A stretch of DNA of 32,000 nucleotides from Candidatus Saccharimonadota bacterium (GTDB taxonomy: Bacteria > Patescibacteriota > Gracilibacteria > BD1-5 > UBA2023). The first letter of the stretch is position 1. Each line of letters starts with the position of its first letter. The notes below the pieces were generated by a model. The model saw nothing but the letters and a program-made list of their open reading frames with translations, had not been told where the DNA came from and did no database searches. Position numbers and translations under genes: made by a program. Below, in pieces: positions 9,500 through 32,000 of the stretch. The DNA lies in NCBI GenBank assembly GCA_963706795.1, contig OY970170.1, forward strand, positions 1,140,001-1,172,000. The letters run 5' to 3'.

Positions 9500-10238
9500 C
9501 AGATTTTGCTTTAGCCAAAATTACAGCTTTGGATTTCTGTGCAGCTTCACGAGAAGCTATGAGCATTGCCTGATCTCGCGTGAGTCAGGCATTTTTTGTG
9601 AGCTGCTCAAATTCGCGGTGCACCTCCTGCATTTCTTCAGTATCTTTCGCAAAGCGATTCGTCCAAAGTGCATCAATAAGCGTGAGTATTTTTTCACTCT
9701 CAGCTGATGGATTCTCTTTGACGAGAGATCGCCATGCATTGAGTTCAATTTTCCAATTATTCTCTGCAGTAAACCCGAGTGAGATCAGTCCATCAAGATC
9801 TTTTGCTGATGGGATCTCGAGAATATCAAGTGTTTGAATGAGCTCGGGCCAATAGAGTCCATTGAGTGCTTTCATTCTCTCGATTCTTCATTGCTTTTGT
9901 GCGAATGTTTTTCAGGCCTTTAAGAGTAATTCTGCGTTCAAAGATAATTTCCAGCCTTTGTCTGAATCTTCTGATGCAAGATCGCGGGCATAACGTTTTA
10001 CTTTACCAGCAAATGTGAGTACATTAATATTTTCCTCAGCCTCATTTTTTGCTCACTCAAGAAGCTCTGCAACGATATCTTGCGGTTCCTCAGCTTCTTC
10101 TACAATGGCAAGTGCCTCCGCTCTTGTTGTTTGGGCAAGAGTTGGAATTTGAGAATGAGCTGACTTTGGATGATCTCAAGGGTTGATTACTACAGCAATC
10201 GCCAGTACCCCTGCAGACAAGGAGGATTTGATATTCAT
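9492..10238 (-). CDS. Hypothetical secreted protein (248 aa)
   Basis: This extends track ORF 9585..9875 in both directions through 5 in-frame TGAs. It has a signal-peptide-like N-terminus (MNIKSSLSAGVLAIAVVINP). The stop is TAG (complement of 9492-9494) and overlaps the helicase 3' end by 8 nt. Confidence 0.55.
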
Positions 10239-10272: not shown

Positions 10273-10797
10273 TTATTTCTTTGTAAGCGCATACCAAATA
10301 CCTCCAAAAATGGCACCAGCAGCATGTCCTATGAGGCTTATCGAGCCAGTAAAGCCAATGAATACATTGAGTCCGAGCATAAAAAACGCAGCCTTAGCTT
10401 GCGGATGATTGGTTCTATCGAGATAGAGCGCCAGGTAGGCAAGTACTGCCATGCAAAATCCACTGATTCCGATAGTTGGCTGACCCGAAAAAAATAGCAG
10501 CGCGACGTAGACGAAGACTGTATTTGCGAGAAAAAACCAAATGAATCGCTTGTTTCACATAATCTGTTCAAGCGTCGGTCCGTAAAAAATCAAAAAGATC
10601 GCATTGGATACGAGATGCAAAGTACCACCATGCAAAAATTGGTAAAATGCGAGCTCAGGCAGTACAGTTTGCCAAGTAAACCCGTCCTGCAAACTACTTC
10701 CGTTTGCTGCAAAATACAAAAGCTCAGGTGCAAAATATGAGGCAACCGTCACTCCAACACAGAGGAGTACGAGCATGAACGAAATCGATCTATCCAT
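10273..10797 (-). CDS. Rhomboid-family intramembrane serine protease
   Basis: This is a 174-aa ORF crossing TGA 10555. It has motifs …FLHGGTLHLVSNAIFL…, GISGFCMAVLAY (a GxSG-type site) and HAAGAIFGG. Its ATG overlaps the lgt stop (ATGGATAG). Confidence 0.75.
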
Positions 10798-13332: not shown

Positions 13333-14548
13333 TTAGGCTTTGTGAAAAATGAGCTTGAATTTCTTTTTACCTGCTTGTACAACTGTACCCTTTGCAGTGT
13401 CTAATGATACGATGGATTCGAGATCAGTTACTACAATTCCATTGATCTTGACTCAGCCTCCAGTTACTGCATTGCGAGCTTCGCCAGTAGTTGGGAAAAA
13501 TCCAATCTCTTTAATGAGTGATACGATTTTGATTGTAGACTCAGCGATAAAGGCTTTTTCCATCTGGTCTTCACTTGGCATGAGGCCTTCGGAGAGAACC
13601 TTTTCGAAGTATGCCTTTCCGGCTTCTGCAGCTTCTGGTGAATGGTAGAGACTGACGATGGTTTCGAGCAAGATCGAGTTTTACGTTTTTTGGATGCTCG
13701 CCAGAGTCGAGACGTTTTTGGTAAGCACTTACTTCTTCACTATCAAGAAGTGTTGCGAGTCTGAGGTAGTCAATAATGAGCTCGTCGCGTACTTCCATGA
13801 TTTTTACAAACATGGCATTCGGTTCCATGTCGATCGCAATGCAATTTGGTGAAGTCTTGCTCATCTTTTTGCCGTCTGGTCCGAGTAGGAGATCAAAGGT
13901 CATGATATCCTGCTTGGCTTGTCCGTGAGCTTCCTGAAGTGTACGACCAGCAAGAAGATTAAAGTACTGATCATTTCCGCCAAGCTCAACATCCGCCTTA
14001 ATCTGTACCGAATCCCACCCCTGCATCACTGGGTAGAGGAATTCTTGGAGACTGATACGGATACCACCCTTGATTCGCTTACTAAAATTCTCACGGTCGA
14101 GCATTTCAGCTACCGAAAAATTTGCAGCGAGTTCCCCAACCTGATTGAAGTTTGTCTTGTCCATCCATTCGCTGTTATAGCGAACTTCAACTTTGTCTAT
14201 ATCAAGGACTTTGCCAAAGAGACCGAGCCAGTTTGCTGCATTTTTGCGAGTCTGTTCGCGTGCGAGCATTGGACGCTCACCATCTTTGTCTGAGGTATCA
14301 CCCACCTGCGCTGTAGCATCTCCGATGATGAGGATGATCTGATGACCCAAATCCTGAAAAGCGCGAAGCTTGAGAATAGGAACCATGTGGCCAAGATGTA
14401 CGATAGTACCGGTTGGATCGATACCGAATTTTATACGGAGTTTTTCTCCTGATTCGAGGCGCTTGCGGAGATTGTTAGCATCGATGGCAGTGCTTACTCA
14501 TTTGGTGAGCAGGGTATCGATGGCGAGCTTAGAGGATTGAGTTGTCAT
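13333..14548 (-). CDS. tyrS: Tyrosyl-tRNA synthetase, reading frame interrupted by an apparent 1-nt frameshift near 13663-13672
   Basis: Motifs are HIGH-type TIVHLGH, GGNDQ, KMSKS-type KKMSKT and a C-terminal S4-like domain (…NAVTGG[G]VKING…). The catalytic part is in the frame of 13571..14386, extended to ATG 14548 through one TGA. The C-terminal part (ETIVSLYHSPEAAEAGKAYFEKV…) is in the +1 frame and ends at TAA 13333-13335. The total span is 1216 nt, which is not a multiple of 3. Confidence 0.85.
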
Positions 14549-14635: not shown

Positions 14636-15262
14636 CTACTTATTTTTGATGATTTTGTCGATGAGTCCGTAGGCGAGGGCATCGTCCGGATACATATAAT
14701 TGTCACGATCACAGTCCTTCTCTACCTGCTTGATATCTTTGCCGGTATGTTTTGCGAGGATTCCATAGAGAACCTGACCAGTTTTGATGATATTTTCTGC
14801 TACGATCTTGATATCGATTGCCTGACCTTCGGCACCACCAAGTGGCTGATGGATCATGATCTCAGAGTTCGGGAGCGAAAATCGTTTTCCCTTAGTTCCA
14901 CCTGCGAGGATGATCGCACCCATAGAAGCTGCGAGTCCGATACATACCGTGATGACATCACACTGGATATATTGCATGGTATCATAAATCGCGAGACCTG
15001 CAGTGACGTGTCCTCCTGGAGAATTTATATAAAGGGTGATTGGAGCCTTTGGATCCTGTTTTTCGAGGAAGAGCAATTGCGCAATAACGGTATTAGCTAC
15101 TGCTGAATCGATCGCATCACCAAGGAAAATCACACGGTCTTCGAGAAGTCGTGAATAAATGTCATAGACACGTTCTCCTGAAGGAGTCTTATCAATAACT
15201 GTTGGGATGAGCATATCGCTCAAGATAGTCTTCTTTTTACTTACGAGCTGTTGTGGAGCCAT
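14636..15262 (-). CDS. clpP: ATP-dependent Clp protease proteolytic subunit
   Basis: This is a 208-aa uninterrupted ORF carrying …[30 protein letters not shown]…[18 protein letters not shown]…AASMGA…MIHQP… The start is 2 nt after the upstream pilin stop. An internal Met (MLIPTV) is a possible alternative start. Confidence 0.93.
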
Positions 15263-15264
15263 TT

Positions 15265-16035
15265 TTAGAAACCGTTAATTGGGAATGGAACGTTCGTCGT
15301 GTCGTTATTTTTGAGATTAGTTGTAGCACCTCCTGGCCCGATGAGCGAAACTGGACATGTGCCGTTACATGTTCCGTACTTGTCATCAAAGTCACCACTG
15401 ATTTTAGTAATCGGACCCTTCTGATCGTCGAGAATAGTGGCTGCAAGATTGAATGCCGTTGCAGTATTTCCACCTGTATTCCAAGCTGCTGGAAGTGCTG
15501 ACTTAGCATAGACAGCATAGACGTAGCGACCGATACCAAAATCTGAGAATACCTGTGATGATCCAACCTTAATATCTTTAAGTCCTGGATCCATGAGATC
15601 GAGTGAGAGTGAAGACTTTGGAAGAACGGTTGTATCCATAACTCCCTTCGCTCCGAGTTGGTTTGTTGGCGTTACTACGTCCATAACCATTCCACCACCA
15701 ATCGAGCTTGCTGCAGTTACACCAGTGATATTGTCACCAGATTTAGTAACCGTGATACCATTTTTGAGTGCAGCAGGAACCGCAGAATTATATCCCCAAA
15801 GATTAGTCGTCGCGCTATATACTGTCGGCATTGGAAGATACTGCTTGTCCTGACGATAGAGTTGAAGAGCATTTTCGATGGCTGCAAGATTCTCAACACG
15901 TTTTGAGTTTTTAGCCTTGTCCGTAGCTCCGGAGAAGCTCGTATAGGCAACCGTAGAGATGATTGCGAGAATAGTAATGACAACGAGAAGTTCTACGAGA
16001 GAAAATCCTCGCGAGGAGCGAATAGATGACATCAT
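15265..16035 (-). CDS. Type IV pilin (second pilin gene)
   Basis: It has the prepilin motif [10 protein letters not shown]|[21 protein letters not shown]. It is 256 aa from ATG 16035; in-frame alternatives are 16032 and 16056. It has no in-frame TGA and stops at TAA. Confidence 0.85.
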
Positions 16036-16162: not shown

Positions 16163-16996
16163 TTAGTAAGGGAGATTTGTACCTTGTCCGTCAGTAATTG
16201 CAGTTGTACCACCTGCTGCTGTTGCAATAAGTCCTGCAACTTCGTTTCCATCTGCAAGTGATGAAGTATGTCCAAGAGCAATAGTTGATACCACACCTGC
16301 TGCACTTGTACCTGTAATAGTAAGTGAAAGACCATCACCACTTACAGAGGTAATAGTACCATCACCGTCAGTACCTGCGCCATTTACCCAAACAGTGTCT
16401 CCTTTCTTAAAGAGTCCAACTGCTGTCGATTGAAGCCCAGTAACTGTAAAGCTACCTGCAATTCCAGTTCCACCAGCAACTGTGTAAGCAACTGCGGTTC
16501 GATTATTGTAGTTGCCTTTTACTGATGCAACTCCATTCGCATTTGTTCCTGCAGGTTCAAGCTTAGCGGCTACTTGAAAAATTCCATTTGCTCTAGTCGA
16601 TGAGCCCATGCGATATTCTGAACCAAGTGGATCCTTAAAACTTGTTGCATCAAGGCCAAGAACTGTATAGTTAGGAACACCTGCATTGTAGTCAGCAGTT
16701 GTTGAGTCTGCACCACCTACTTGTGCTGTTGTAAGTGCAAGTTTATTATTCGTGACCGCACTGTTAACAGTTGAAATAAGTGAAATTCCTTCTGTTGATT
16801 TTGTCGTAACTGCAGTTGTGAGTGATCGGAGATCAGCCGTTCGCTTCGAGTCACGGCTCTGTCCAGAATATCCCTGGAGTGAGAGGAATCCGATTGTTCC
16901 GAGGATTGCGAGGATCGTGATAACTACGATAAGCTCGACGAGGGTGAAACCCTTATTATTAGTAGAGGCAGAAGCCTGTGTTGTTTGTGAAACCAT
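16163..16996 (-). CDS. Type IV pilin (probable major pilin)
   Basis: This 277-aa ORF starts MVSQTTQASASTNNKG|[27 protein letters not shown]. The C-terminal part is Thr/Gly/Ala-rich. It has its own terminator, no in-frame TGA, and is first in the minus-strand string. Confidence 0.88.
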   Translation of the reverse strand: MVSQTTQASASTNNKGFTLVELIVVITILAILGTIGFLSLQGYSGQSRDSKRTADLRSLTTAVTTKSTEGISLISTVNSAVTNNKLALTTAQVGGADSTTADYNAGVPNYTVLGLDATSFKDPLGSEYRMGSSTRANGIFQVAAKLEPAGTNANGVASVKGNYNNRTAVAYTVAGGTGIAGSFTVTGLQSTAVGLFKKGDTVWVNGAGTDGDGTITSVSGDGLSLTITGTSAAGVVSTIALGHTSSLADGNEVAGLIATAAGGTTAITDGQGTNLPY

Positions 16997-18592: not shown

Positions 18593-20569
18593 ATGATCAA
18601 GGAGATCTTACGTACGCTCTTTAAAATCCACTCGTCACCTGCTGATAAGGTGACGGATTTTAGTGATGCGTACGACTGGATCATTACGTATAAAAAGGCT
18701 CGGGAATACGACACAGCCATCATGGCTGCGCGAGAGCTTCTCCTCAAGATCAAATCAGGGATTACGTATTTTACGAGCGCCGAAAAAAAGATCACGGTGC
18801 TTGCTTCGTCTAATATTGAGAGCATCGCAAAGGCTGCCAAGAGCAAAGGAAGGACCGTCGAACGTCATCTCAAGCATCTCCATACTTGGGAAACTCAGGT
18901 CCGCAAGCTCATCGAAACCTGTGAAGAACTCCGCATCAAAAAACAAGAAAAAGACGAAGAACTCCGCATCCATGCACAGGTTATGGCGGAGATTGCTGTG
19001 ATTAACGGGCATATTACCAAAAAAGAGTTCCCTCAGGCACTGCATTTAGCAAAGAAGCTTGCAGCAGCGCACTACACATCAAAGGAAGCGACGGATACGC
19101 TCATCAAAACACAAAAACTCTTTGATAGTAAAATCAATAAAAAAGAAGAAAGTCTCAAGGGTACGCAACGCAGACTTGAGAGATTTTTCCGTGAATCTGG
19201 TATTAAAAATGGAGCCGAAGCAGCTGAGAAAACAAATGTTGCTCCAAAAAATGGATTCAAAGAAAAATTTCGCGCGTTGTTTGATCAGATATCGCTCAAA
19301 CAACGAGAACACCGCGAGTATCTCAAGCGCCAAAAGGCACTCCGCACCATTGAGCAACTCTTAGTTGAGTCTGGTTCGATTACCAAAATTACAGACGAAG
19401 AGGGGAATGAAGAGCTCTTCTCGATCATGGAAAATGGTCTTACGAAGGACATCAATAACTTTAGTATCGATGGGTACAACTTCTTTGGAAAAATTATCGG
19501 TAAGGACAAGATCGTAGGTGACACTTTTGGTTTTCATCGTGATGGCACACGAACAGTGTTCTATTTTGGCGATGCTACGGGACACGGAGTACAGGCAGGG
19601 TTTACGGTCTCGCTTCTCACGAAAATTTTCTTTGAATACGCAAAGAAGGTAAAGAACTTTGTAGAACTCTTCAAGACACTCAATAACGAACTCAAGGCAA
19701 AGCTCAAGGGTCGTGTATTTGTGACGGGAGTATTTATGGAACATGATTCGATGGCTGGAACGCTCAAATTTATTGGAGCTGGCCACGATCCGATGTATAT
19801 CTACCACGCCAAAACCCGCGAAGTAGAAAAAATCATCCCAGGAGGTCTCGCACTTGGAGTTCGCAATATCAGTAATGTTGGCTCGATCAAGGTCCGTGAC
19901 ATGATCCTCGAAGATGGCGATATCCTTGTGGGATATACCGACGGTATTATCGAAGCTCGCAATGCTCAAAATGAGCTCTATGGTCTCACTCGCCTCGAAA
20001 ATGCGCTTCGTGCCAAAGGCAAAGAATCCGAGGGCGACATCAACCGTCTCTACGATCTGCTCTATAAGGACGTAAAGGAATTCCAGGGAAATACTCTCTT
20101 TTTGGATGACGTTTCGTTTTTTATTTTTAAGCGTGATTCTTCACGAGATTTGATCACTGAGAAGGCTGAGCTCGATAAGCTGCTCGAAGATCTCGATATG
20201 TCTCAGCGAACGGTCAAGGTTGACTACAAAGGCAAAACCCGAGCCGAAGTTGCAGAACTCATGCAAAAAGAACGTCACGCAGCTGAGCTCAAAGCACGCC
20301 TCGCCAATCTTGATCAGCTCTACAAAATCTGAGAATATCCTCGCCTCAAACAAGAGATCACACAGTGCTACAAACAAGGATTTGTCCATGAACGAATGAA
20401 GTTCTTCCTCGAAAAAATCATGAAGAACGAAGACAAAACCAAGCTCACCAAGCTCGAAGACAGAATCCAGAAAAAATACGAAATGCTGCAGGAACTCTGC
20501 GACAAATGAGAATATGGTATAGTGATCCGAGAGACGATCGACGTCCTTTATAAGAATGGTAATATCTAG
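18593..20569 (+). CDS. SpoIIE/RsbU-like PP2C-family Ser/Thr phosphatase with long helical N- and C-terminal extensions
   Basis: This 658-aa protein extends track ORF 18593..20332 through TGAs at 20330 and 20507 to TAG 20567-20569. The phosphatase motifs are intact: GDTFGF, VFYFGDATGHGVQAG, GAGHDPMYIY, LVGYTDGIIEARN and LFLDDVSFFIFKR. About 300 N-terminal residues are Lys/Glu-rich and helical with no TM segment. Confidence 0.8.
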
Positions 20570-24788: not shown

Positions 24789-24816
24789 TTGACAGGCACC
24801 GAAGTTTTTATATGAT
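24789..24816 (+). promoter_or_regulatory. Candidate sigma70-type promoter for the tRNA cluster
   Basis: TTGACA (24789-24794), a 16-nt spacer, then TATGAT (24811-24816). It lies about 30 nt upstream of the first tRNA. Confidence 0.45.
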
Positions 24817-24845: not shown

Positions 24846-24921
24846 GCGGGCGTAGCTCAATGGCTAGAGTCCCTGCCTTCCAAGCAGACTGTTATGGGTT
24901 CGAGTCCCATCGCCCGCTCCA
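24846..24921 (+). tRNA. tRNA-Gly (anticodon UCC)
   Basis: Cloverleaf read by hand: acceptor GCGGGCG/CGCCCGC, anticodon loop CUUCCAA, T-arm ATGGG-TTCGAGT-CCCAT, encoded CCA. Length is 76 nt. Confidence 0.9.
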
Positions 24922-24956
24922 TCGATTATCAAAGAAGGTCCTTTTGGACACAGACA

Positions 24957-25016
24957 GTAGAGGTTAGTGGTTCGATTTTAGTGGACATCCACTAGAGTGG
25001 AGTCACTAACCTCTAC
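24957..25016 (+). other. 60-nt extended hairpin between tRNA-Gly and tRNA-Ile (unknown structured element)
   Basis: An outer perfect 13-bp stem pairs GTAGAGGTTAGTG with CACTAACCTCTAC. An inner 6-bp stem pairs TAGTGG with CCACTA around an ACAT loop. The 9x9 internal region can pair largely with G:U wobbles. Confidence 0.4.
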
Positions 25017-25025
25017 GCGTTAAAT

Positions 25026-25102
25026 GGGTGCATAGCTCAGTTGGTTAGAGCGCGTCTCTGATAAGGACGAGGTCCGTGGTTCAACTCCACGTGCACCCAC
25101 CA
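25026..25102 (+). tRNA. tRNA-Ile (anticodon GAU)
   Basis: Acceptor GGGTGCA/TGCACCC, anticodon stem CGTCT/GGACG with loop CUGAUAA, T-arm CGTGG-TTCAACT-CCACG, encoded CCA. Length is 77 nt. Confidence 0.9.
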
Positions 25103-25156
25103 TTTCAAAATTAGATTCCCAAAAGAGTTAAGAGAAGTACAGTAACTCTTTTTATT

Positions 25157-25233
25157 CGGAGACTGGCGCAATTGGCTAGCGCACGTGCTTTGGGAGCACG
25201 GGGTTGTGGGTTCGAGTCCCACGTCTCCGACCA
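25157..25233 (+). tRNA. tRNA-Pro (anticodon UGG)
   Basis: Acceptor CGGAGAC/GTCTCCG, anticodon stem CGTGC/GCACG with loop UUUGGGA, T-arm GTGGG-TTCGAGT-CCCAC, encoded CCA. Length is 77 nt. Confidence 0.9.
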
Positions 25234-25353
25234 TTAAAAAATCATCGAGTCTCCATGTGGGGCGAGAACATGAGGTATGCACCGAAGCTTCGCAGAAGCG
25301 AAGGCGCATAGAAAGCCAACGATTTGGCTTTCGGCCGAGGGAGGCCCGAAGGG

Positions 25354-25375
25354 GAGTCCCACGTCTCCGACCATT
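25354..25375 (+). repeat. Direct repeat of the tRNA-Pro 3' end (copy of 25214-25235)
   Basis: The 22-nt sequence GAGTCCCACGTCTCCGACCATT (T-loop 3' part, T-stem, acceptor 3' strand, CCA and 2 more nt) recurs exactly 140 nt downstream. No matching 5' half or T-stem partner is present. Confidence 0.85.
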
Positions 25376-25380
25376 TGTTT

Positions 25381-25455
25381 GACGCTATCGTCTAGTGGTT
25401 AGGACAACGGGTTTTCATCCCGTAAGCCGGAGTTCAATTCTCCGTAGCGTTACCA
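25381..25455 (+). tRNA. tRNA-Glu (anticodon UUC)
   Basis: Acceptor GACGCTA/TAGCGTT (G:U at 1:72), anticodon stem ACGGG/CCCGT with loop UUUUCAU, T-arm CGGAG-TTCAATT-CTCCG, encoded CCA. Length is 75 nt. Confidence 0.88.
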
Positions 25456-25470
25456 GTAAAATTCAACATC

Positions 25471-25508
25471 AAAAAAGACCGTTCGGATGATCACGAACGG
25501 TCTTTTTT
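25471..25508 (+). terminator. Rho-independent terminator ending the tRNA cluster
   Basis: AAAAAAGACCGTTCG-GATGATCA-CGAACGGTCTTTTTT: a 9-bp GC-rich core stem flanked by A and T runs. Confidence 0.8.
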
Positions 25509-25710
25509 GATGCCCCTACAAGATTCTCATTAAAGTTCTTTGTATACTGCATAGAGGAAATACAGCTTTTTCCCATGATATTCTAATTTAATTACTCTTA
25601 AAAAAACGATCAGCTTTTTGACAATCTCATGATGGCCAGTATGGTGCACATAGGTTAGATTGTGATTCTTCACTGTAAGAATGGTCGAACCTGTTCTCAA
25701 ATGACAACTT

Positions 25711-25720
25711 AAAGGAGGTG
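25711..25720 (+). promoter_or_regulatory. Canonical Shine-Dalgarno AAAGGAGGTG for the MCP gene
   Basis: The GGAGG core is 6 nt upstream of ATG 25725. I found no comparable motif upstream of the other gene starts I inspected. A possible promoter is TTGACA 25618-25623, 16 nt, TATGGT 25640-25645. Confidence 0.8.
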
Positions 25721-25724
25721 TACA

Positions 25725-27344
25725 ATGGTGAACTTGAAGAATGTAAAAATAGGTGTTCGACTTTCAGTCGGATTTGGGGTAGTAATTTCACTCTTGGCAG
25801 TGGTGATAATAAAAGCTGTCATGCTTTTAAATTCATCTAATGCTGCAAGTGATAATATCGTCGCTGCAGAAATAAATGCAGCTCTCGTGGAGGACTGGAG
25901 AAATCACGTTCTTCTTAACGGAGTTCGTACAGTGGGCAGAATTTTTTCAAATAGTCCAACATACGAAAAGCAGCTCGTAGATGATATGAACCGTACGATG
26001 CAGGAAGTTAATATCATTCAAGAAAAGCTTACCAAACTCACCGTTGAACCAGAAGCTAAGAAGCTAATGGAAAGTGTTGCTGCGAAGCGAAAACAAATAA
26101 TCGCCATTCGTGAACAAATCTTTAAAGCAAAAGCGAACGGCGAGAGTGCAGTTGTCCAAGAAATATTCGATTCGAAGTTTAAGCCAACTCTCTTGTCGTA
26201 CGAAGAGAGTATGCTGGAGGTTTCTAAATACTACCAGGATATAGTTGCAAAAACTTCACAATCAATGGACGATGAATTTCAGAAAGCGCTATATACGCTC
26301 ATAGGACTGGGTATAATTGCTAGTATCATCGGCATTGGTTTTGCAATAGGTATTATGCGAAGTATTACAAAACCACTCTATGAAGCTGTCAGAGTTGCAG
26401 ATGCTATCGCATCTGGAAATCTGACAGCACAGCACATCACGAATCATTCAAAAGATGAAACGGGGCAACTGCTGGCAAGCCTGGAAAAAATGAGGGAAAA
26501 TATTTCGGGTATTGTAGGAGGTATCCGCAGCGGTGTCATAAGTATCGTTGCTCAAACTCAAGAAATTGCTGAAGAGAGCTCAAATCTCTCGGCAAGGACT
26601 GAGGCACAGGCATCGGCTCTCCAACAAACTGCTGCCACTATGGAAGAACTCGCTTCCACCGTGCAGCAAAATGCAAACAATACGAACTTGACTGATAAGC
26701 AGATGGTACAAGTTTCTAAAATGGCTGAGCAAGGAAAGGGTTCGGTCGAAAAAGTAGTAGGGAGCATGGGGGAAATCAATGCAAGTTCACGGCAAATTGT
26801 GGACATTATCAGTATTATTGATGGCATTGCATTTCAAACCAATATTCTGGCGCTCAATGCTGCAGTAGAAGCAGCACGTGCTGGTGAACAAGGACGTGGC
26901 TTTGCCGTGGTGGCAACTGAAGTGCGCAATCTGGCTCATCGCAGTGCCGCTGCAGCAAAAGATATCAAAACACTCATTGATGATTCAGTAGCAAAAGTCG
27001 GGATGGGAATTGTCCAGGCTAATGCTGCAGGAGAAGATATGAACAAGATTGCCGCCGAAATCTCAAATGTTCAGAATATGATGGGAGGCATTTCTGATGC
27101 TACGCGGGAGCAAGAAATTGCCATTGATGCAGTCAAACTGGCTGTTAACTCAATGGACGATGGCACACAGCAAAACGCTGCCCTCGTCGAACAAACTGCT
27201 GCGGCAGCTGAAGCACTGAGGAGTGAAGCTGAAATATTAGCTAAGCTCGTTAGTCAATTTAAGGATGTTGAGCAAGTTGCAGCACCAAAGAAGAGTCAAC
27301 TACAGTACAAACCCACCAGACTACAACCTGTTTTAATAAAGTAG
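25725..27344 (+). CDS. Methyl-accepting chemotaxis protein (two TM helices, periplasmic helical sensor, HAMP, MCP signalling domain)
   Basis: This is a 539-aa uninterrupted ORF. TM1 is VGFGVVISLLAVVIIKAVMLL and TM2 is LIGLGIIASIIGIGFAIGIM. The HAMP-like segment is RSITKPLYEAVRVADAIASGNL…DETGQLLASL. The conserved signalling hairpin is …IDGIAFQTNILALNAAVEAARAGEQGRGFAVVATEVRNLAHRSA… The stop is TAG and there is no in-frame TGA. Confidence 0.93.
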   Translation: MVNLKNVKIGVRLSVGFGVVISLLAVVIIKAVMLLNSSNAASDNIVAAEINAALVEDWRNHVLLNGVRTVGRIFSNSPTYEKQLVDDMNRTMQEVNIIQEKLTKLTVEPEAKKLMESVAAKRKQIIAIREQIFKAKANGESAVVQEIFDSKFKPTLLSYEESMLEVSKYYQDIVAKTSQSMDDEFQKALYTLIGLGIIASIIGIGFAIGIMRSITKPLYEAVRVADAIASGNLTAQHITNHSKDETGQLLASLEKMRENISGIVGGIRSGVISIVAQTQEIAEESSNLSARTEAQASALQQTAATMEELASTVQQNANNTNLTDKQMVQVSKMAEQGKGSVEKVVGSMGEINASSRQIVDIISIIDGIAFQTNILALNAAVEAARAGEQGRGFAVVATEVRNLAHRSAAAAKDIKTLIDDSVAKVGMGIVQANAAGEDMNKIAAEISNVQNMMGGISDATREQEIAIDAVKLAVNSMDDGTQQNAALVEQTAAAAEALRSEAEILAKLVSQFKDVEQVAAPKKSQLQYKPTRLQPVLIK

Positions 27345-27364
27345 GTTGTATGTCTACGAGATTT

Positions 27365-27393
27365 GATCCCAAGAGATATTTGGGGTCTTTTTT
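27365..27393 (+). terminator. Rho-independent terminator after the MCP gene
   Basis: GATCCCAA-GAGATAT-TTGGGGTC (8 bp, one G:U) followed by T6. It starts 20 nt after the MCP stop. Confidence 0.6.
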
Positions 27394-27448
27394 ATTCCTT
27401 GCCTTTGGTGCAAACAGTAAATGCTTGATGCTCCACTGGAAGAAACTT

Positions 27449-27479
27449 AAAAATCCACTTCGTAATGAAGTGGATTTTT
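27449..27479. terminator. Bidirectional hairpin terminator (serves the minus-strand gene ending at 27484)
   Basis: AAAAATCCACTTC-GTAAT-GAAGTGGATTTTT: a 13-bp stem including the flanking A:T pairs. Confidence 0.65.
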
Positions 27480-27483
27480 AAGT

Positions 27484-27891
27484 TTACTTTGCTTGAGATA
27501 GAGAGTTCTGTAGCTCAGTACAAAATTCTTTTAAGGATGGACTTGCTGGAACTTTTGCACTTACAACATTGCGCACATCTCGTTGGAGTGATTCATAGGA
27601 AGTTCTCACATCCGAATGAGCTCCAAAGACTTTTTCTATTGCATTCTTCACTACTCAATTGAGCTCGATTAAAGCATTAAATTCTTCTGCGCGAATATGA
27701 TTACCGAAGGCGTCAGGATGTCATTCATTTCTTTCAATTCGAAAAACACCTTCTTTACACTGCTCTAATACTCGAAAGAGAGTATTTCCATGGACTGCTA
27801 AGGTTGCAGGATTGAGATGGTCTCAAGCAATTGCGATGGAGGCTCGACTCATTAAAAATCGAACTTCCTGCTCAGGGGAATGAAGCGACAT
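27484..27891 (-). CDS. Hypothetical protein (135 aa)
   Basis: The ORF runs from ATG (complement of 27889-27891) to TAA (27484-27486) with 3 in-frame TGAs: MSLHSPEQEVRFLMSRASIAIA[G]DHLNPATLAVHGNTLFRVLEQCKEGVFRIERNE[G]HPDAFGNHIRAEEFNALIELN[G]VVKNAIEKVFG… I recognise no motif, and it is absent from the ORF track. Confidence 0.55.
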
Positions 27892-27996
27892 ATCCTAAAG
27901 ATTAGATAGCTCAACAGTATATATAGAACAAACTAAGTCAATAGACCTTTGTATAAACTTCGGATTGTTGTAGGATTCCCCTTTAAATACTCTCGA

Positions 27997-28500
27997 TTAT
28001 ATTTTATATACATAAATGCTCATTCCTTTTGGGTCTTTGTGTACGGCAATCTGCTTGAGCCAGTCTATTTTAAAGAGATATGAGACGATCCTGGTTCATG
28101 GCTTGAGTTCATTTTGGAGTTTGGTTTTGAATGCATTGCTTTTATTGATTGTTGCATCTGTGCCGAACATATAGACAATAGTGGCTTCGCTCAGGTTCTT
28201 TTTAAAAAAGTTACCGAAGACAAAGTCTATATTTGTGCTTCTGGTAAGCCATTTTTTACAGATACAATAGAGATAAAAAATAATCGAAATCTCAAATCAT
28301 ACGGCCTTGATTCATTTTTGTGCAAAATAAAAATCGAGTCGTCCATCGCCGCATCAGAGATCATAGAAAACATCGGCAGAGGTTGGCTGCAAAATTTGAT
28401 AGATACGCTCTACATCTTTTGTCTTAGTGGGTACCCAAGGTGCAAAGTAAAAGGCTCACATTCCAAAAATGAGCACCACGAGAATAAAAATATCGTACAT
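27997..28500 (-). CDS. Membrane-anchored class I SAM-dependent methyltransferase (paralog 2)
   Basis: This 167-aa ORF has 5 in-frame TGAs. It has an N-terminal TM helix (MYDIFILVVLIFGM[G]AFYF), then APWVPT and motif I FYDL[G]CGDGRL, where a TGA encodes a motif-I Gly. It ends …GMSIYVYKI. It is antisense to track ORF 28114..28578. Confidence 0.8.
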
Positions 28501-28501
28501 A

Positions 28502-29059
28502 TTAAGCTACTTTATAGACATAGATTTTTTGATCGCGGCCGCATTCAATTATTTTATAGGGTTCGATTCACTGAATAAAAAAACTATTTGAATACAAGAG
28601 CGTTCATGGTTGGCACTCAGACTCAATTTTCTGCCATATTTTTAGCATGAGATGAGGGAGTAGGTATGCGTATGCAACATTTACTTCAGCTAAAGAAGCA
28701 TGGAAAAAGTCTTCATTTGAGACGCTGTAATTTCCTTGATATTCCGCCTTTTTTTTGAGTGCGAGATTGTACGGTCGCTTCGAATTTTCGTAGCCGATGA
28801 AATGGTTATTTGGATGCCTTTGGCTCATAGCATACAGAATTTTACCATCTCCGCAGCCAATATCTACAAATGTTTGTCACGGTCGCAGCTCGATATTTTG
28901 GAGAAGCACCTCGAGTTTTGAATCTGGTGTCATTACGAATGGCACTCAATAGCCCGCAAAGATCTGTCTGAATTCTCGGAATGCAAAATACAGCATCACA
29001 AGAACTACTGCACAAACAAATACGAGTGTAAATATGGCGAATACAAGCTGAATAGACAT
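28502..29059 (-). CDS. Membrane-anchored class I SAM-dependent methyltransferase (paralog 1)
   Basis: This 185-aa ORF has 4 in-frame TGAs. It has an N-terminal TM helix (MSIQLVFAIFTLVFVCAVVLVMLYFAF), then [G]VPFVMTP and motif I FVDIGCGDGKIL. It ends …QKIYVYKVA. Its stop is 1 nt before the start of paralog 2. Confidence 0.8.
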
Positions 29060-29148
29060 TCGATCGAGAAATGTAAGATTCCTTTTGTGCTCAGTTTGGT
29101 GTAAATAGTCTTTTTGTAAAGCAAAGCAGAATAGAGTGAATTTCGAAT

Positions 29149-29177
29149 AAAAAAACCGTAATGGTATTACGGTTTTT
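29149..29177. terminator. Terminator-like hairpin inside a divergent intergenic region
   Basis: AAAAACCGTAAT-GGT-ATTACGGTTTTT: a 12-bp stem with A/T-run flanks. It lies between the minus-strand methyltransferase start (29059) and the plus-strand gene start (29247). Confidence 0.5.
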
Positions 29178-29246
29178 AAAAAGGTAAATCGTCTTGTTCT
29201 TCTTCTACGATCTAGGTACAATACACTACGTAATCCTTCAATATTT

Positions 29247-29474
29247 ATGGCTCGCAATTCTACTCATTCTACTGAGGAATCTCAGGAAAATTCTCATAAA
29301 GGGAAAAGACACGGAAGACATCATACATATGTCGGTGTATTTATAGTGATTATCGGATGTCTTTTCCTTCTCGATAATTTTGGGTATCTGCCTCACGATA
29401 TGTGGTCAAAGTATTGGCCGATAGTGATTATCATCCTCGGACTTATGCGAATATTTCGTTCGCATAAAGAGTAA
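29247..29474 (+). CDS. Small two-TM membrane protein (LiaF-N/DUF5668-like), His/Lys-rich N-terminus
   Basis: The 75-aa ORF is MARNSTHSTEESQENSHKGKRHGRHHTYVGVFIVIIGCLFLLDNFGYLPHDMWSKYWPIVIIILGLMRIF. The pattern G..FLLDN.G.L…YWP…I.LG resembles the DUF5668/LiaF N-terminal region. The stop is TAA. Confidence 0.6.
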   Translation: MARNSTHSTEESQENSHKGKRHGRHHTYVGVFIVIIGCLFLLDNFGYLPHDMWSKYWPIVIIILGLMRIFRSHKE

Positions 29475-29475
29475 T

Positions 29476-29504
29476 AAAAAGACCTCCGTCATGGAGGTCT
29501 TTTT
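29476..29504. terminator. Bidirectional rho-independent terminator
   Basis: AAAAAGACCTCC-GTCAT-GGAGGTCTTTTT lies between the convergent stops at 29474 and 29506. Confidence 0.75.
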
Positions 29505-30090: not shown

Positions 30091-32000
30091 CTATTCAACT
30101 TCGTCAATGAATTTTTTGCGTACGTAGCCAGTTCCTTTTTGTGATCGGATTTCAACCCATTCTGAACCATTAAGACGGTCGAGGATAACGATGAGCTCGC
30201 CATGTTTGAGTGGGCTGAGTGATCGTACGATCGGAGAATCTCCATCTGGCTTTGAACGAATATTGAGGTATCGAGCTGCATTGACGCGTGCCCATGTAAC
30301 CTCGTAGTTGAGTTCGTGACCTTGTGCAAAGAGGTATGGATCAGTGCGGGCAATATCCGAATCCTGAAGCGTTCGGAGATAGTCGAGATAGACCCAACCA
30401 TCGACCCCGTCAAATGTTACATGCCCCCAAACTCCTTGTTCCCCAATGAGTTCAACACGGCTATTGCGTGGAAGTGTCGCGAGGAGATCGCCATCCATGC
30501 TTGGTGTCAAGCGAACATTGACCGAGTTTGCAGCGCTGATAAATCGTGCACCACCTTCAAATGTATAGTCTACTGGATTTGTACCATTGGTAGCAGTTGG
30601 AGTATCGACTGCGTCACCATTCTTTACAACATATCCAAGTCCTGGAGCATCAACTGCATGACCAATTGGAGTCTTTGGAACTGTAGGCTTTTTTATCGGA
30701 GTGGTTGGCTTAACTGTTGGCTTTGTCGGTCTAACAATTGGTTTTGTTGTACCCTTCACTGGAGTAGTTGGTGGGTATGGGGTTTTAATTGTTGGAGTTC
30801 CCATGTTACCGATTGCTCCTGTTCCGGTAGTGGTAGTACCGGTACCAGTAGTAGTTGTCCCTGTTCCCGTATTTACTGTAGGAGTAGAAGGTGTTGAAGG
30901 AAATCCAATGAAGATGCTTCCTCCTCCACTTCCACCACCTCCGCTTGATCCAAATGATCCGCCGCCCCCTCCACCAGATGAACCTCCATTACTTCCGCCA
31001 TTTGTGCTTGCTACTGCGAAGAGTGCGGTACCAACTGGAGTATCTGTAATGTTTCCTGCTGCATCAACTGAGTGTACAAATACGTAATAGGTATTTGTTG
31101 GATCTACACCAACAATCGCACCTGAATGACTTGTACCAACTGTTGATCCGCTCCAAATTGTTGTCGCAACAACATTTGAGCCCGTTCCTACATAAAATGT
31201 TGAAGTCGTCGTTTCGTTCGTTGTAAATGTGTAATAACCCGTTGTCACTCCTGCATTAGTAACTCCTGAGAAGCTCTGAGCACTAATTGCGGGTGCGAGT
31301 GCGTCCTGAGTAATTACCACGTTCGTTCCAGTTGATACATTACCTGCGAGGTCAGTTGCCCGAACTACAAAGGTTGTTCCTGTATTTGTAACGAGTGGGA
31401 GAGTGAGCGTATATGCTCCAGTACCACTTGCGATTGTAGAGACCATTCCTGAAGATGTCGCTGTGACTGTTGCTCCTGTCTCAGTCGTACCTGTGAGAAC
31501 GTATGTAAGTGCATTTGTAATTGCTCCCGTTGCCGAGACCGTAAAGCTTGGTGCAACCGAATCTTGAATTACCGCAATCGATCCAGTAAGGGTCGCCGAA
31601 GTGTCAGTGGCCGTTACGAGGAAATTATTTGTCACATTTGCTGTGAGTGGAAGCGTAACACTATATGCCCCCGTTCCAGATACGGTAGTCGAGGCTGATG
31701 CTGTACCGCTGACTGCAATATTTGCATTTGCCTTTGAAGTTCCTGAAATCGTAAATGTATTTGCGCTCGTCGTAATTGGTCCGACCTGCGTAATAGTGAG
31801 TGTGAGTGGAATTGGATCCTGAGTAATTACTACAGATCCCGTTCCTACATTGCCTGCAAGATCAGTTGCAGTGACCAGAAGCGTATTTGCTGCACCAATC
31901 GAGAGTGGTACAACGAGGCTAAATGCTCCTGAACCATCTGCAACTCCACCGACTACTGCGCCAGAACCTCCAGAGATTACAATGCTCGCAAAGGCTTCTG
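30091..32000 (-). CDS. Large surface protein: tandem Ig-like repeats, low-complexity linker, two C-terminal SH3b-like domains (5' end beyond the right edge)
   Basis: The frame is open from the window edge (codons in register from 31998) to TAG 30091-30093, so at least 636 aa. A roughly 85-aa repeat recurs at least 3 times (…SGTGAY(S/T)(V/L)TLPL…ATDLAGN…V(V/I)(I)TQD…P). It is followed by an FN3/Ig-like unit, then a Gly/Ser, TGTGTTTT and Pro/Thr/Lys linker. Two SH3b-like units follow (…VNVRLTPSMDGDLLATLPRNSRVELIGEQGVWGHVTFDGVDGWVYLDYL and …LNIRSKPDGDSPIVRSLSPLKHGELIVILDRLNGSEWVEIRSQKGTGYVRKKFI). The GTG 'start' at 31635 in the track is internal. Confidence 0.8.
   Translation of the reverse strand, partial: EAFASIVISGGSGAVVGGVADGSGAFSLVVPLSIGAANTLLVTATDLAGNVGTGSVVITQDPIPLTLTITQVGPITTSANTFTISGTSKANANIAVSGTASASTTVSGTGAYSVTLPLTANVTNNFLVTATDTSATLTGSIAVIQDSVAPSFTVSATGAITNALTYVLTGTTETGATVTATSSGMVSTIASGTGAYTLTLPLVTNTGTTFVVRATDLAGNVSTGTNVVITQDALAPAISAQSFSGVTNAGVTTGYYTFTTNETTTSTFYVGTGSNVVATTIWSGSTVGTSHSGAIVGVDPTNTYYVFVHSVDAAGNITDTPVGTALFAVASTNGGSNGGSSGGGGGGSFGSSGGGGSGGGSIFIGFPSTPSTPTVNTGTGTTTTGTGTTTTGTGAIGNMGTPTIKTPYPPTTPVKGTTKPIVRPTKPTVKPTTPIKKPTVPKTPIGHAVDAPGLGYVVKNGDAVDTPTATNGTNPVDYTFEGGARFISAANSVNVRLTPSMDGDLLATLPRNSRVELIGEQGVWGHVTFDGVDGWVYLDYLRTLQDSDIARTDPYLFAQGHELNYEVTWARVNAARYLNIRSKPDGDSPIVRSLSPLKHGELIVILDRLNGSEWVEIRSQKGTGYVRKKFIDEVE
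30661..31008 (-). repeat. Low-complexity coding repeats within the surface protein
   Basis: The segment encodes TNGGSNGGSSGGGGGGSFGSSGGGGSGGGS, then TGTGTTTTGTGTTTTGTG, then TPYPPTTPVKGTTKPIVRPTKPTVKPTTPIKKPTVPKTP. The DNA shows short tandem units such as GGTACCGGTACCAGTAGTAGTTGT-type repeats. Confidence 0.8.

Follow-up and report, generated by a model that had tools for sequence, protein, structure and literature searches.

Chemoreceptors of the Tsr/Tar type in Escherichia coli (36-heptad class; PDB 6s1k, 3zx6, and 1qu7) comprise two transmembrane segments, a periplasmic four-helix bundle, a HAMP domain, and a signalling hairpin. The receptors of Burkholderiales che operons are encoded in che/flagellar operons by genes with a high GC content at third codon positions (GC3, 0.56-0.87) and weak Shine-Dalgarno (SD) sequences (-5 to -7 kcal/mol), and mostly end in (D/E)WEEF, and PilJ is the receptor of the Pil-Chp system, which controls type IV pili. 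The present study concerns a gene for a receptor of this general kind, a methyl-accepting chemotaxis protein (MCP), in a stretch of 32,000 nucleotides (the window; contig OY970170.1 of assembly GCA_963706795.1, positions 1,140,001 to 1,172,000) from a bacterium of the Gracilibacteria within the candidate phyla radiation (CPR). In Vampirococcus lugosii, a UGA-recoded CPR bacterium, 126 genes have been inferred as horizontally transferred (PMC8080830); the window shares with that genome a resident intact gene of apparent non-CPR ancestry in genetic code 25, and differs in the nature of the gene, as no chemoreceptor is reported from V. lugosii and "chemotaxis" occurs there only as a COG category label (PMC8080830). 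Since UGA-recoded CPR bacteria have already been shown to gain genes, one more acquired gene would be no news by itself. The presence of a complete chemoreceptor asks whether these epibionts sense chemicals; to our knowledge, no report of a complete flagellar-type chemoreceptor exists for this group.

We consider it probable that the gene encodes a complete, proteobacterial-type, Tsr/Tar-like chemoreceptor that was acquired long ago by UGA-recoded Gracilibacteria that do not use SD sequences. The receptor would be of proteobacterial ancestry, closest to Burkholderiales flagellar-chemotaxis receptors, and would have been gained horizontally by a lineage that reads UGA as Gly and initiates translation without SD sequences, its place being in variable DNA that starts right past a conserved tRNA cluster. 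Since its acquisition, the base composition would have drifted fully to that of the host and the protein would have diverged further from its relatives than these relatives from E. coli Tsr, with the CheA/CheW-binding parts and the methylation sites still intact.

The receptor protein

The gene and the domains that it encodes are as follows, in positions of the window.
25725-27344, plus strand: MCP coding sequence, 539 amino acids and a TAG stop, with an ATG start and no in-frame TGA (open reading frame [ORF] and Pfam)
25740-26267, plus strand: periplasmic four-helix-bundle sensor, residues 6-181 (Pfam 4HB_MCP_1, 57.1 bits against a cutoff of 27)
26352-26507, plus strand: HAMP domain, residues 210-261 (Pfam HAMP, 41.4 bits against a cutoff of 25)
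26709-27161, plus strand: MCP signalling domain, residues 329-479 (Pfam MCPsignal PF00015, 156.1 bits against a cutoff of 34.6)

The features by which an MCP is recognized are all present, namely a signalling domain, a HAMP domain, a periplasmic sensor between two transmembrane segments (read from the sequence as hydrophobic stretches at about residues 10-35 and 190-212), and a conserved tip. The hairpin tip IDGIAFQTNILALNAAVEAARAGEQGRGFAVVA, the region contacting CheA/CheW, is identical in the MCP and E. coli Tsr, and residues 182-517 align with Tsr 186-520 in one ungapped stretch, without insertion or deletion of heptads, which indicates a receptor of the 36-heptad (Tsr/Tar-like) class. At the predicted methylation sites, the Glx pairs of Tsr (QQ, EE, EQ, and EE) are matched by AQ, QQ, EE, and EQ in the MCP. 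From Tsr and Tar, the MCP differs in a cytoplasmic identity of 47%, in its non-flagellated-type CPR host with no che genes seen nearby, and at its C-terminus. Pentapeptides of the NWETF type, which serve in CheR/CheB docking, occur in high-abundance receptors only; the MCP ends in ...RLQPVLIK and has none, and a C-terminal (D/E)WE(E/T)F or DWTEF is found in about 22 of the 28 close homologs fetched.

Past or present interaction with CheA/CheW and CheR/CheB is predicted from the intact state of the tip and of the methylation sites. The preliminary description of this DNA had remarked that neither CheA nor CheW is visible, and indeed none of CheA, CheW, CheY, CheR, and CheB is found among the about 25 annotated genes of the 32-kb window; the receptor would either signal through Che-type partners encoded elsewhere or be an orphan. 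The same description had suggested that the receptor may feed into the nearby type IV pilus system. PilJ is likewise an MCP-type receptor, and the visible motility genes of the host are those of a type IV pilus; however, the MCP has a four-helix-bundle rather than a PilJ-type sensor, its nearest relatives are flagellar-operon receptors, and recJ and four tRNAs lie between it and the pilus genes. Furthermore, the pilus cluster at 15.3-22.9 kb holds only pilins, PilB, a SpoIIE-domain protein, PilC, and PilT, and the window contains no PilJ/ChpA-type features and no pilG/H/I/chpA-type neighbours. The suggestion was not borne out, and linking the MCP to the pilus genes would be speculation.

Origin and age of the gene

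The genome around the MCP is recoded. In the window, the summed ORF length more than doubles when TGA is read as sense; one TGA of recJ stands opposite an invariant Gly (79 of 80 homologs), a second stands opposite mostly Gly, and none stands opposite Trp, and the best matches of RecJ, encoded 1 kb upstream of the MCP, are exclusively from Gracilibacteria (45-62% identity). On these comparisons, the window is part of a code-25 Gracilibacteria chromosome. The recoding of both flanks of the MCP, noted previously, is upheld upstream by recJ and downstream by a methyltransferase gene (28502-29068; 1.2 kb past the MCP) with TGA at conserved PG motifs, whereas the intervening ORF at 27484-27891, to which the claim had appealed, has no homolog support. 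The block that directly precedes the MCP, as had been described, is the following.
24846-25455, plus strand: tRNA cluster Gly(tcc)-Ile(gat)-Pro(tgg)-Glu(ttc) (ARAGORN and Rfam), the final block syntenic with relatives, the MCP lying just past it

Among 5.8 billion proteins searched, of which the best 120 matches were considered, the sole close match to the MCP is the MCP itself, and the next matches show 42-48% identity. The best of these (P0002) reaches 48% over 67% of the length, and full-length matches lie at 42-46%. All named matches are from Burkholderiales, except for one labelled Pseudomonadota only, and the genera are Herminiimonas, Massilia, Undibacterium, Janthinobacterium, Oxalicibacterium, Herbaspirillum, Noviherbaspirillum, Variovorax, and Oxalobacter. 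Most Burkholderiales matches cover 89-99% of the MCP with the same three Pfam domains and are its best full-length homologs; one of them (P0006) lies inside a motAB-cheY-cheA-cheW-MCP-cheB-cheY-cheZ operon. The MCP gene of the window, by comparison, is solitary and shifted toward AT, with a very strong SD. P0002 was considered as a possible CPR relative and rejected, since the contig that encodes it is 63% GC and carries ordinary bacterial genes.

The two closest relatives fetched, loci L082 and L084 (RecJ identity of 57 and 61%, respectively), bear on the position of the gene. L082 has the order pilins-PilB-SpoIIE-PilC-PilT-RecJ followed by the tRNAs Gly, Ile, Pro, and Glu, and the short contig L084 retains RecJ and the same four tRNAs. 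Neither contains an MCP or any of the downstream genes of the window, and in both, distant as they are, everything past the tRNAs differs; synteny thus stops at tRNA-Glu, with the MCP on the variable side. The synonymous codon usage of the MCP (z = 7.8; excess of CTG, ATA, AGT, and AGG) is the second most deviant among 25 genes, and its tetranucleotide distance falls at the 97th percentile. Homolog taxonomy, absence from the syntenic site in L082 and L084, and atypical codon usage together support, at the level of sequence, a horizontal origin from a proteobacterial lineage with the standard code and SD use. The earlier proposal of horizontal acquisition is to this extent supported.

A receptor ancestral to this Gracilibacteria lineage or to CPR and lost in the sampled relatives, with its likeness to Burkholderiales due to database bias or reverse transfer, would be consistent with the host-like GC content and promoter candidate and with the separate long branch of the MCP outside the Burkholderiales group. 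We regard this as unlikely, since no Gracilibacteria or CPR protein occurs among the best 120 matches in a database where CPR proteins are abundant, both syntenic relatives lack the gene, codon usage and SD are unlike those of host genes, the 36-heptad Tsr type belongs to proteobacterial flagellar chemotaxis operons, and "chemotaxis" has zero occurrences in a paper on one complete Gracilibacterium genome. A literature search likewise found nothing specific on chemotaxis in Gracilibacteria.

An assembly chimera or contamination, i.e., a foreign read cluster joined into a Gracilibacteria contig, could also explain a taxonomically foreign gene, the more so as it is bounded by hairpin repeats at which assemblers can mis-join. 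However, a foreign insert of this kind presupposes two precise joins within one chromosome-sized contig (1,267,896 bp, as recorded for the MCP protein), the gene is 270 bp from host tRNAs on its upstream side and has recoded host genes within 1.2 kb on its downstream side, and the GC3 of 0.365 fits this genome and no sampled relative of the gene. Such an artefact is highly improbable.

Regarding age, the preliminary description had seen a recent import from an SD-using, standard-code donor at a tRNA hotspot, with the SD and the UGA-free ORF of the donor retained. The strong SD in a genome otherwise without them, the absence of TGA, the location beside tRNAs, the atypical codon usage, and the absence in relatives would all fit this account. 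By contrast, identity reaches at most 48% among the 5.8 billion proteins, and the composition is that of the host: the gene has a GC content of 0.433 against 0.434 for the window, in agreement with the earlier impression by eye, and a GC3 within the host range, whereas the genes of the nearest homologs have a GC content of 0.53-0.66 and a GC3 of 0.56-0.87. The deviation of the gene is confined to synonymous codon choice and tetranucleotides. The cytoplasmic domain shares 53% identity with the Burkholderiales type and 47% with Tsr, against 58% between the Burkholderiales type and Tsr, and in a neighbour-joining tree of 29 sequences rooted with Tsr, the MCP forms a long branch outside the whole Burkholderiales-type group. 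Neither a copy of the tRNA-Glu 3' end nor a flanking repeat is present around 25.5-28.5 kb, and the window holds no integrase gene, contrary to integration at a tRNA hotspot. The SD, moreover, far exceeds in strength those of the proteobacterial homologs' genes and does not resemble a simple relic. Identity, host-like GC and GC3, the long branch, and the lack of attachment (att) repeats and an integrase indicate that the transfer would be old, or that the copy evolved fast, or both, rather than a fresh import, and a recent arrival is decidedly improbable.

The missing UGA codons, previously taken as a sign of foreign origin, are real and carry no such weight. TGA accounts for 8.3% of the Gly codons elsewhere in the window, and its absence from the 31 Gly codons of the MCP has a probability of 0.07; seven other window genes also lack TGA, including that of a 514-amino-acid protein with 68 Gly codons. 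The absence is therefore not beyond chance, and the argument from UGA is void; at this gene length, a missing UGA is no evidence of foreign origin. The TAG stop, also pointed out earlier, is present and not unusual, as 11 of the 25 window genes use it. As a separate observation, UGA-Gly codons are distributed unevenly: the TGA-free genes include those of the Big/SH3 surface protein (30091-31635; given its 68 Gly codons, the window rate predicts such an absence with P of about 0.003), two pilins, and ClpP (16163-16996, 15265-16035, and 14636-15262), and small ORFs with no assigned role are rich in UGA-Gly codons; UGA may be avoided in abundant proteins.

Several points weigh against an old horizontal gain. 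L082 and L084 are distant (RecJ 57-61%) and differ throughout the downstream region, so that what they show is a synteny break rather than a single-gene insertion. Only the 8000 candidates sharing most words were scored in the homolog search, and divergent CPR receptors could be missed; the tree was a quick neighbour-joining one of 29 sequences with one outgroup, and rapid evolution of the copy might give a younger transfer the appearance of an old one. Codon usage may deviate for other reasons as well, such as low expression or the unusual amino-acid make-up of coiled coils, and the statements on Che partners and other MCPs cover a 32-kb window of a 1.27-Mb genome, with a generic anti-SD in place of that of the 16S rRNA. 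We infer the direction and age of the transfer with these points in mind.

The Shine-Dalgarno sequence and the transcription unit

The sites around the coding sequence are as follows.
25467-25512, no strand assigned: perfect 19-bp hairpin with flanking A/T runs, terminator-like, between the tRNA cluster and the MCP unit (hairpin scan)
25618-25645, plus strand: sigma-70-like promoter candidate TTGACA-16-TATGGT (consensus match only)
25711-25720, plus strand: Shine-Dalgarno sequence AAAGGAGGTG, ending 4 nt before the ATG, with GGAGG (25714-25718) at a 6-nt spacing (anti-SD duplex energy)
27365-27395, plus strand: intrinsic-terminator-like hairpin (27365-27387) with a T-run, 20 nt past the MCP stop (consensus-like site)
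27443-27485, no strand assigned: second perfect 19-bp hairpin, likely a two-way terminator shared with the converging ORF 27484-27891 (hairpin scan)

The strong SD was the starting point of the preliminary description and is confirmed. With strength expressed as duplex energy against a generic anti-SD, in place of the 3' end of the host 16S rRNA, the site reaches -15.4 kcal/mol, the lowest energy among the 63,956 22-mers of the two strands of the window, and every 22-mer at or below this value falls at this site alone. The remaining 24 gene starts range from +2.2 to -10.7 kcal/mol with a mean of -1.7, and are hence weaker than the background mean of -2.75; the AAGAGG before pilB, mentioned earlier as the closest motif, is present and scores -7.0. 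The same census in two further loci gave no start reaching -8 kcal/mol (0 of 10 in L082 and 0 of 17 in L085), so that nothing comparable occurs at 24 + 27 starts; mean start energies are -1.7, -1.45, and -0.16 kcal/mol against backgrounds of -2.75, -3.5, and -2.7 in the window, L082, and L085, respectively, and the 20 nt upstream of starts are pyrimidine/A-rich in all three. The earlier survey, which found no other GGAGG, holds as far as likely starts are concerned but overlooked one motif: a GGAGG-8 nt-ATG at 10305/10292 on the minus strand. This candidate was rejected as a second SD because the rhomboid reading frame contains the motif, and the gene after rhomboid more likely starts at 10238 (MNIKSS..., signal-peptide-like), where no SD is present. 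The SD of the MCP is thus real, unique in the window, and foreign to the start style of the lineage. A literature search found nothing specific on SD use in Gracilibacteria.

The SDs of a proteobacterial che operon (L118) average -5.7 kcal/mol, far weaker than that of the MCP, which makes a simple relic unlikely; since the composition has turned over, selection accounts better than inheritance for a perfect SD at ideal spacing. The SD would accordingly have been kept by selection rather than inherited from the donor, and the host ribosome would still possess a usable anti-SD. Among SD-poor bacteria, rare SD-bearing genes are known, e.g., rpsU of Bacteroidota, in which the SD serves the autoregulation of a ribosomal protein. 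A single strong SD amid genes otherwise without one is common to both cases; the difference is that here it precedes an apparently acquired receptor and is gauged by a generic anti-SD rather than that of the host. A single very strong SD amid SD-avoiding genes offers a clean natural test of ribosomal SD use.

The promoter and terminators claimed for the gene are found at their places, with the reservation that they are consensus matches and that promoter-like and terminator-like sites in the region are no more numerous than in shuffles. The promoter candidate resembles a TTGACA-16-TATGAT before the tRNA cluster (24789-24816). With this host-like promoter candidate, the very strong SD, and the terminator, the MCP is probably a self-contained unit that is expressed.

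A decaying orphan without function in the host, whose ORF and SD survive by chance, would account for the lack of a Che partner in the window, the accelerated divergence, the loss of the C-terminal (D/E)WEEF tether of most close homologs, and the poor codon adaptation. We hold it to be very unlikely, because the 539-codon ORF is still open after a full turnover of composition, the tip is identical to that of Tsr, no indels have accrued over 335 residues, the methylation pairs are retained, and the SD is the strongest in 32 kb at ideal spacing. There is a small chance, to be regarded as tentative, of the opposite extreme, namely that a reduced, pilus-bearing CPR bacterium has kept a proteobacterial Tsr-type receptor under long selection and translates it, unlike its other genes, via a canonical SD. 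If so, its ribosomes would retain a working anti-SD for a few special genes, and the receptor would signal through partners that are non-canonical or were acquired separately, perhaps to direct movement by pili toward host cells.

Beside the MCP, the ORF at 27484-27891 (135 amino acids with 3 TGA codons) deviates more in codon usage than any other in the window (z = 8.6), and neither Pfam nor NCBIfam has a match for it. The surrounding 2 kb (27400-29500) have the lowest GC content of the window (0.38); this ORF may be another foreign or decayed piece, or no gene.

A tRNA-linked element and neighbouring genes

The spacer downstream of tRNA-Pro contains an element that may matter more than the MCP finding. 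It occurs in the window and in both relatives.
Window 25234-25373: tRNA-linked element after tRNA-Pro (25157-25233), a 120-nt insert and a copy of the tRNA 3' end
L082 12669-12855: tRNA-linked element after tRNA-Pro, the copy matching the tRNA variant of L082 itself
L084 3102-3226: tRNA-linked element after tRNA-Gly

In the window, the last 20 nt of tRNA-Pro (25214-25233) recur exactly at 25354-25373 with the 120-nt insert between them. This repeat was tried as an attL/attR scar of MCP insertion and rejected, as it belongs to a 140-nt unit lying upstream of tRNA-Glu that recurs beside other tRNAs in other genomes and whose helices covary; a second copy of a tRNA 3' end need not be the mark of an integration. 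The inserts share the core TAGAAAGCCAACNNNTTGGCTTTCG and an invariant hairpin AAAGCCAA/TTGGCTTT. The core matches 31 metagenome loci (L087-L117), and in these, the window, and both relatives it stands shortly past a tRNA, of at least ten identities (Thr, Val, Arg, Cys, Ser, Trp, Lys, Leu, Pro, and Gly). In 23 of the 25 loci with the upstream tRNA in hand, one arm of the element is antisense to the T-arm or acceptor of that tRNA, and in 14 the element ends in an 18-nt copy of the tRNA 3' end, from T-loop to CCA.

A covariance model was built for the Gracilibacteria-type form (R1), whose ten seed sequences score 80-103 bits; when applied to RecJ-centred loci of about 80 other bacteria (1.36 Mb), it recovered the three known loci and one weak match in L082 only. 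The closing helix and second hairpin of R1 show compensatory changes, with a covariation score of 0.303 against 0.110 in shuffles (0 of 500 reach 0.303) and at most 0.068 in slid controls. A second form, one carrier of which is a Yonathbacteria-like Parcubacterium, folds like a tRNA acceptor/T-stem minihelix in which the core hairpin replaces the D and anticodon arms. The element is a conserved, structured, tRNA-linked feature that stands beside many tRNAs in CPR bacteria, with carriers in Gracilibacteria as well as Parcubacteria. At both thresholds, Rfam 15 reports only the four tRNAs and no known RNA in the MCP leader or the element, IMG/VR contains no copy of the core, and a literature search found no description of such an element. 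No protein family was found to travel with the element, only the housekeeping synteny prfB-ftsE-ftsX being seen. Candidate explanations are a tRNA-like small RNA, a natural guide pairing with tRNA, and the end structure of a mobile element targeting tRNA 3' ends.

Two observations concern the surroundings of the element. The 7.5-kb contig L091 (1-7530) encodes, as read from ORF translations alone, a DNA methyltransferase (DPPY motif and HTH-like N-terminus) and a large helicase-like ORF, a pair that looks like a type III restriction-modification cassette, and both its ends carry the left part of the element in inverted orientation after non-tRNA DNA ending in CACCA (also in L101); the element may be mobile or may flank cassettes, or the ends may be an assembly artefact. 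In the window, an inverted repeat with 29-nt arms (83% complementary; 24957-25016), distinct from the element, takes up most of the tRNA-Gly/tRNA-Ile spacer.

The annotated genes of the window include DUF2130, MazF, CysRS, a sugar transferase, a UvrD-nuclease, rhomboid, Lgt, LspA, a TrpRS/TyrRS-type protein, ClpP, two pilins, PilB, the SpoIIE-domain protein, PilC, PilT, RecJ, the four tRNAs, the MCP, the methyltransferase, and the Big/SH3 surface protein. The MazF/PemK-type toxin gene and a small overlapping upstream ORF lie at 1657-1998 and 1991-2230; the product of the small ORF is likely the antitoxin, although it has no family match. The TrpRS/TyrRS-type ORF (13511-14548) carries an Arg-rich tail of ~50 amino acids past the Pfam match, which could reflect a frameshift, translation past the true stop, or a genuine extension. 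In the type IV pilus operon, the gene between those of PilB and PilC (18593-20569) encodes a 658-amino-acid protein with a SpoIIE/PP2C phosphatase domain, and a counterpart with 44% identity occupies the same place in the operon of L082 (4661-6538), which suggests that phospho-regulation may be built into the type IV pilus operon of this Gracilibacteria lineage.

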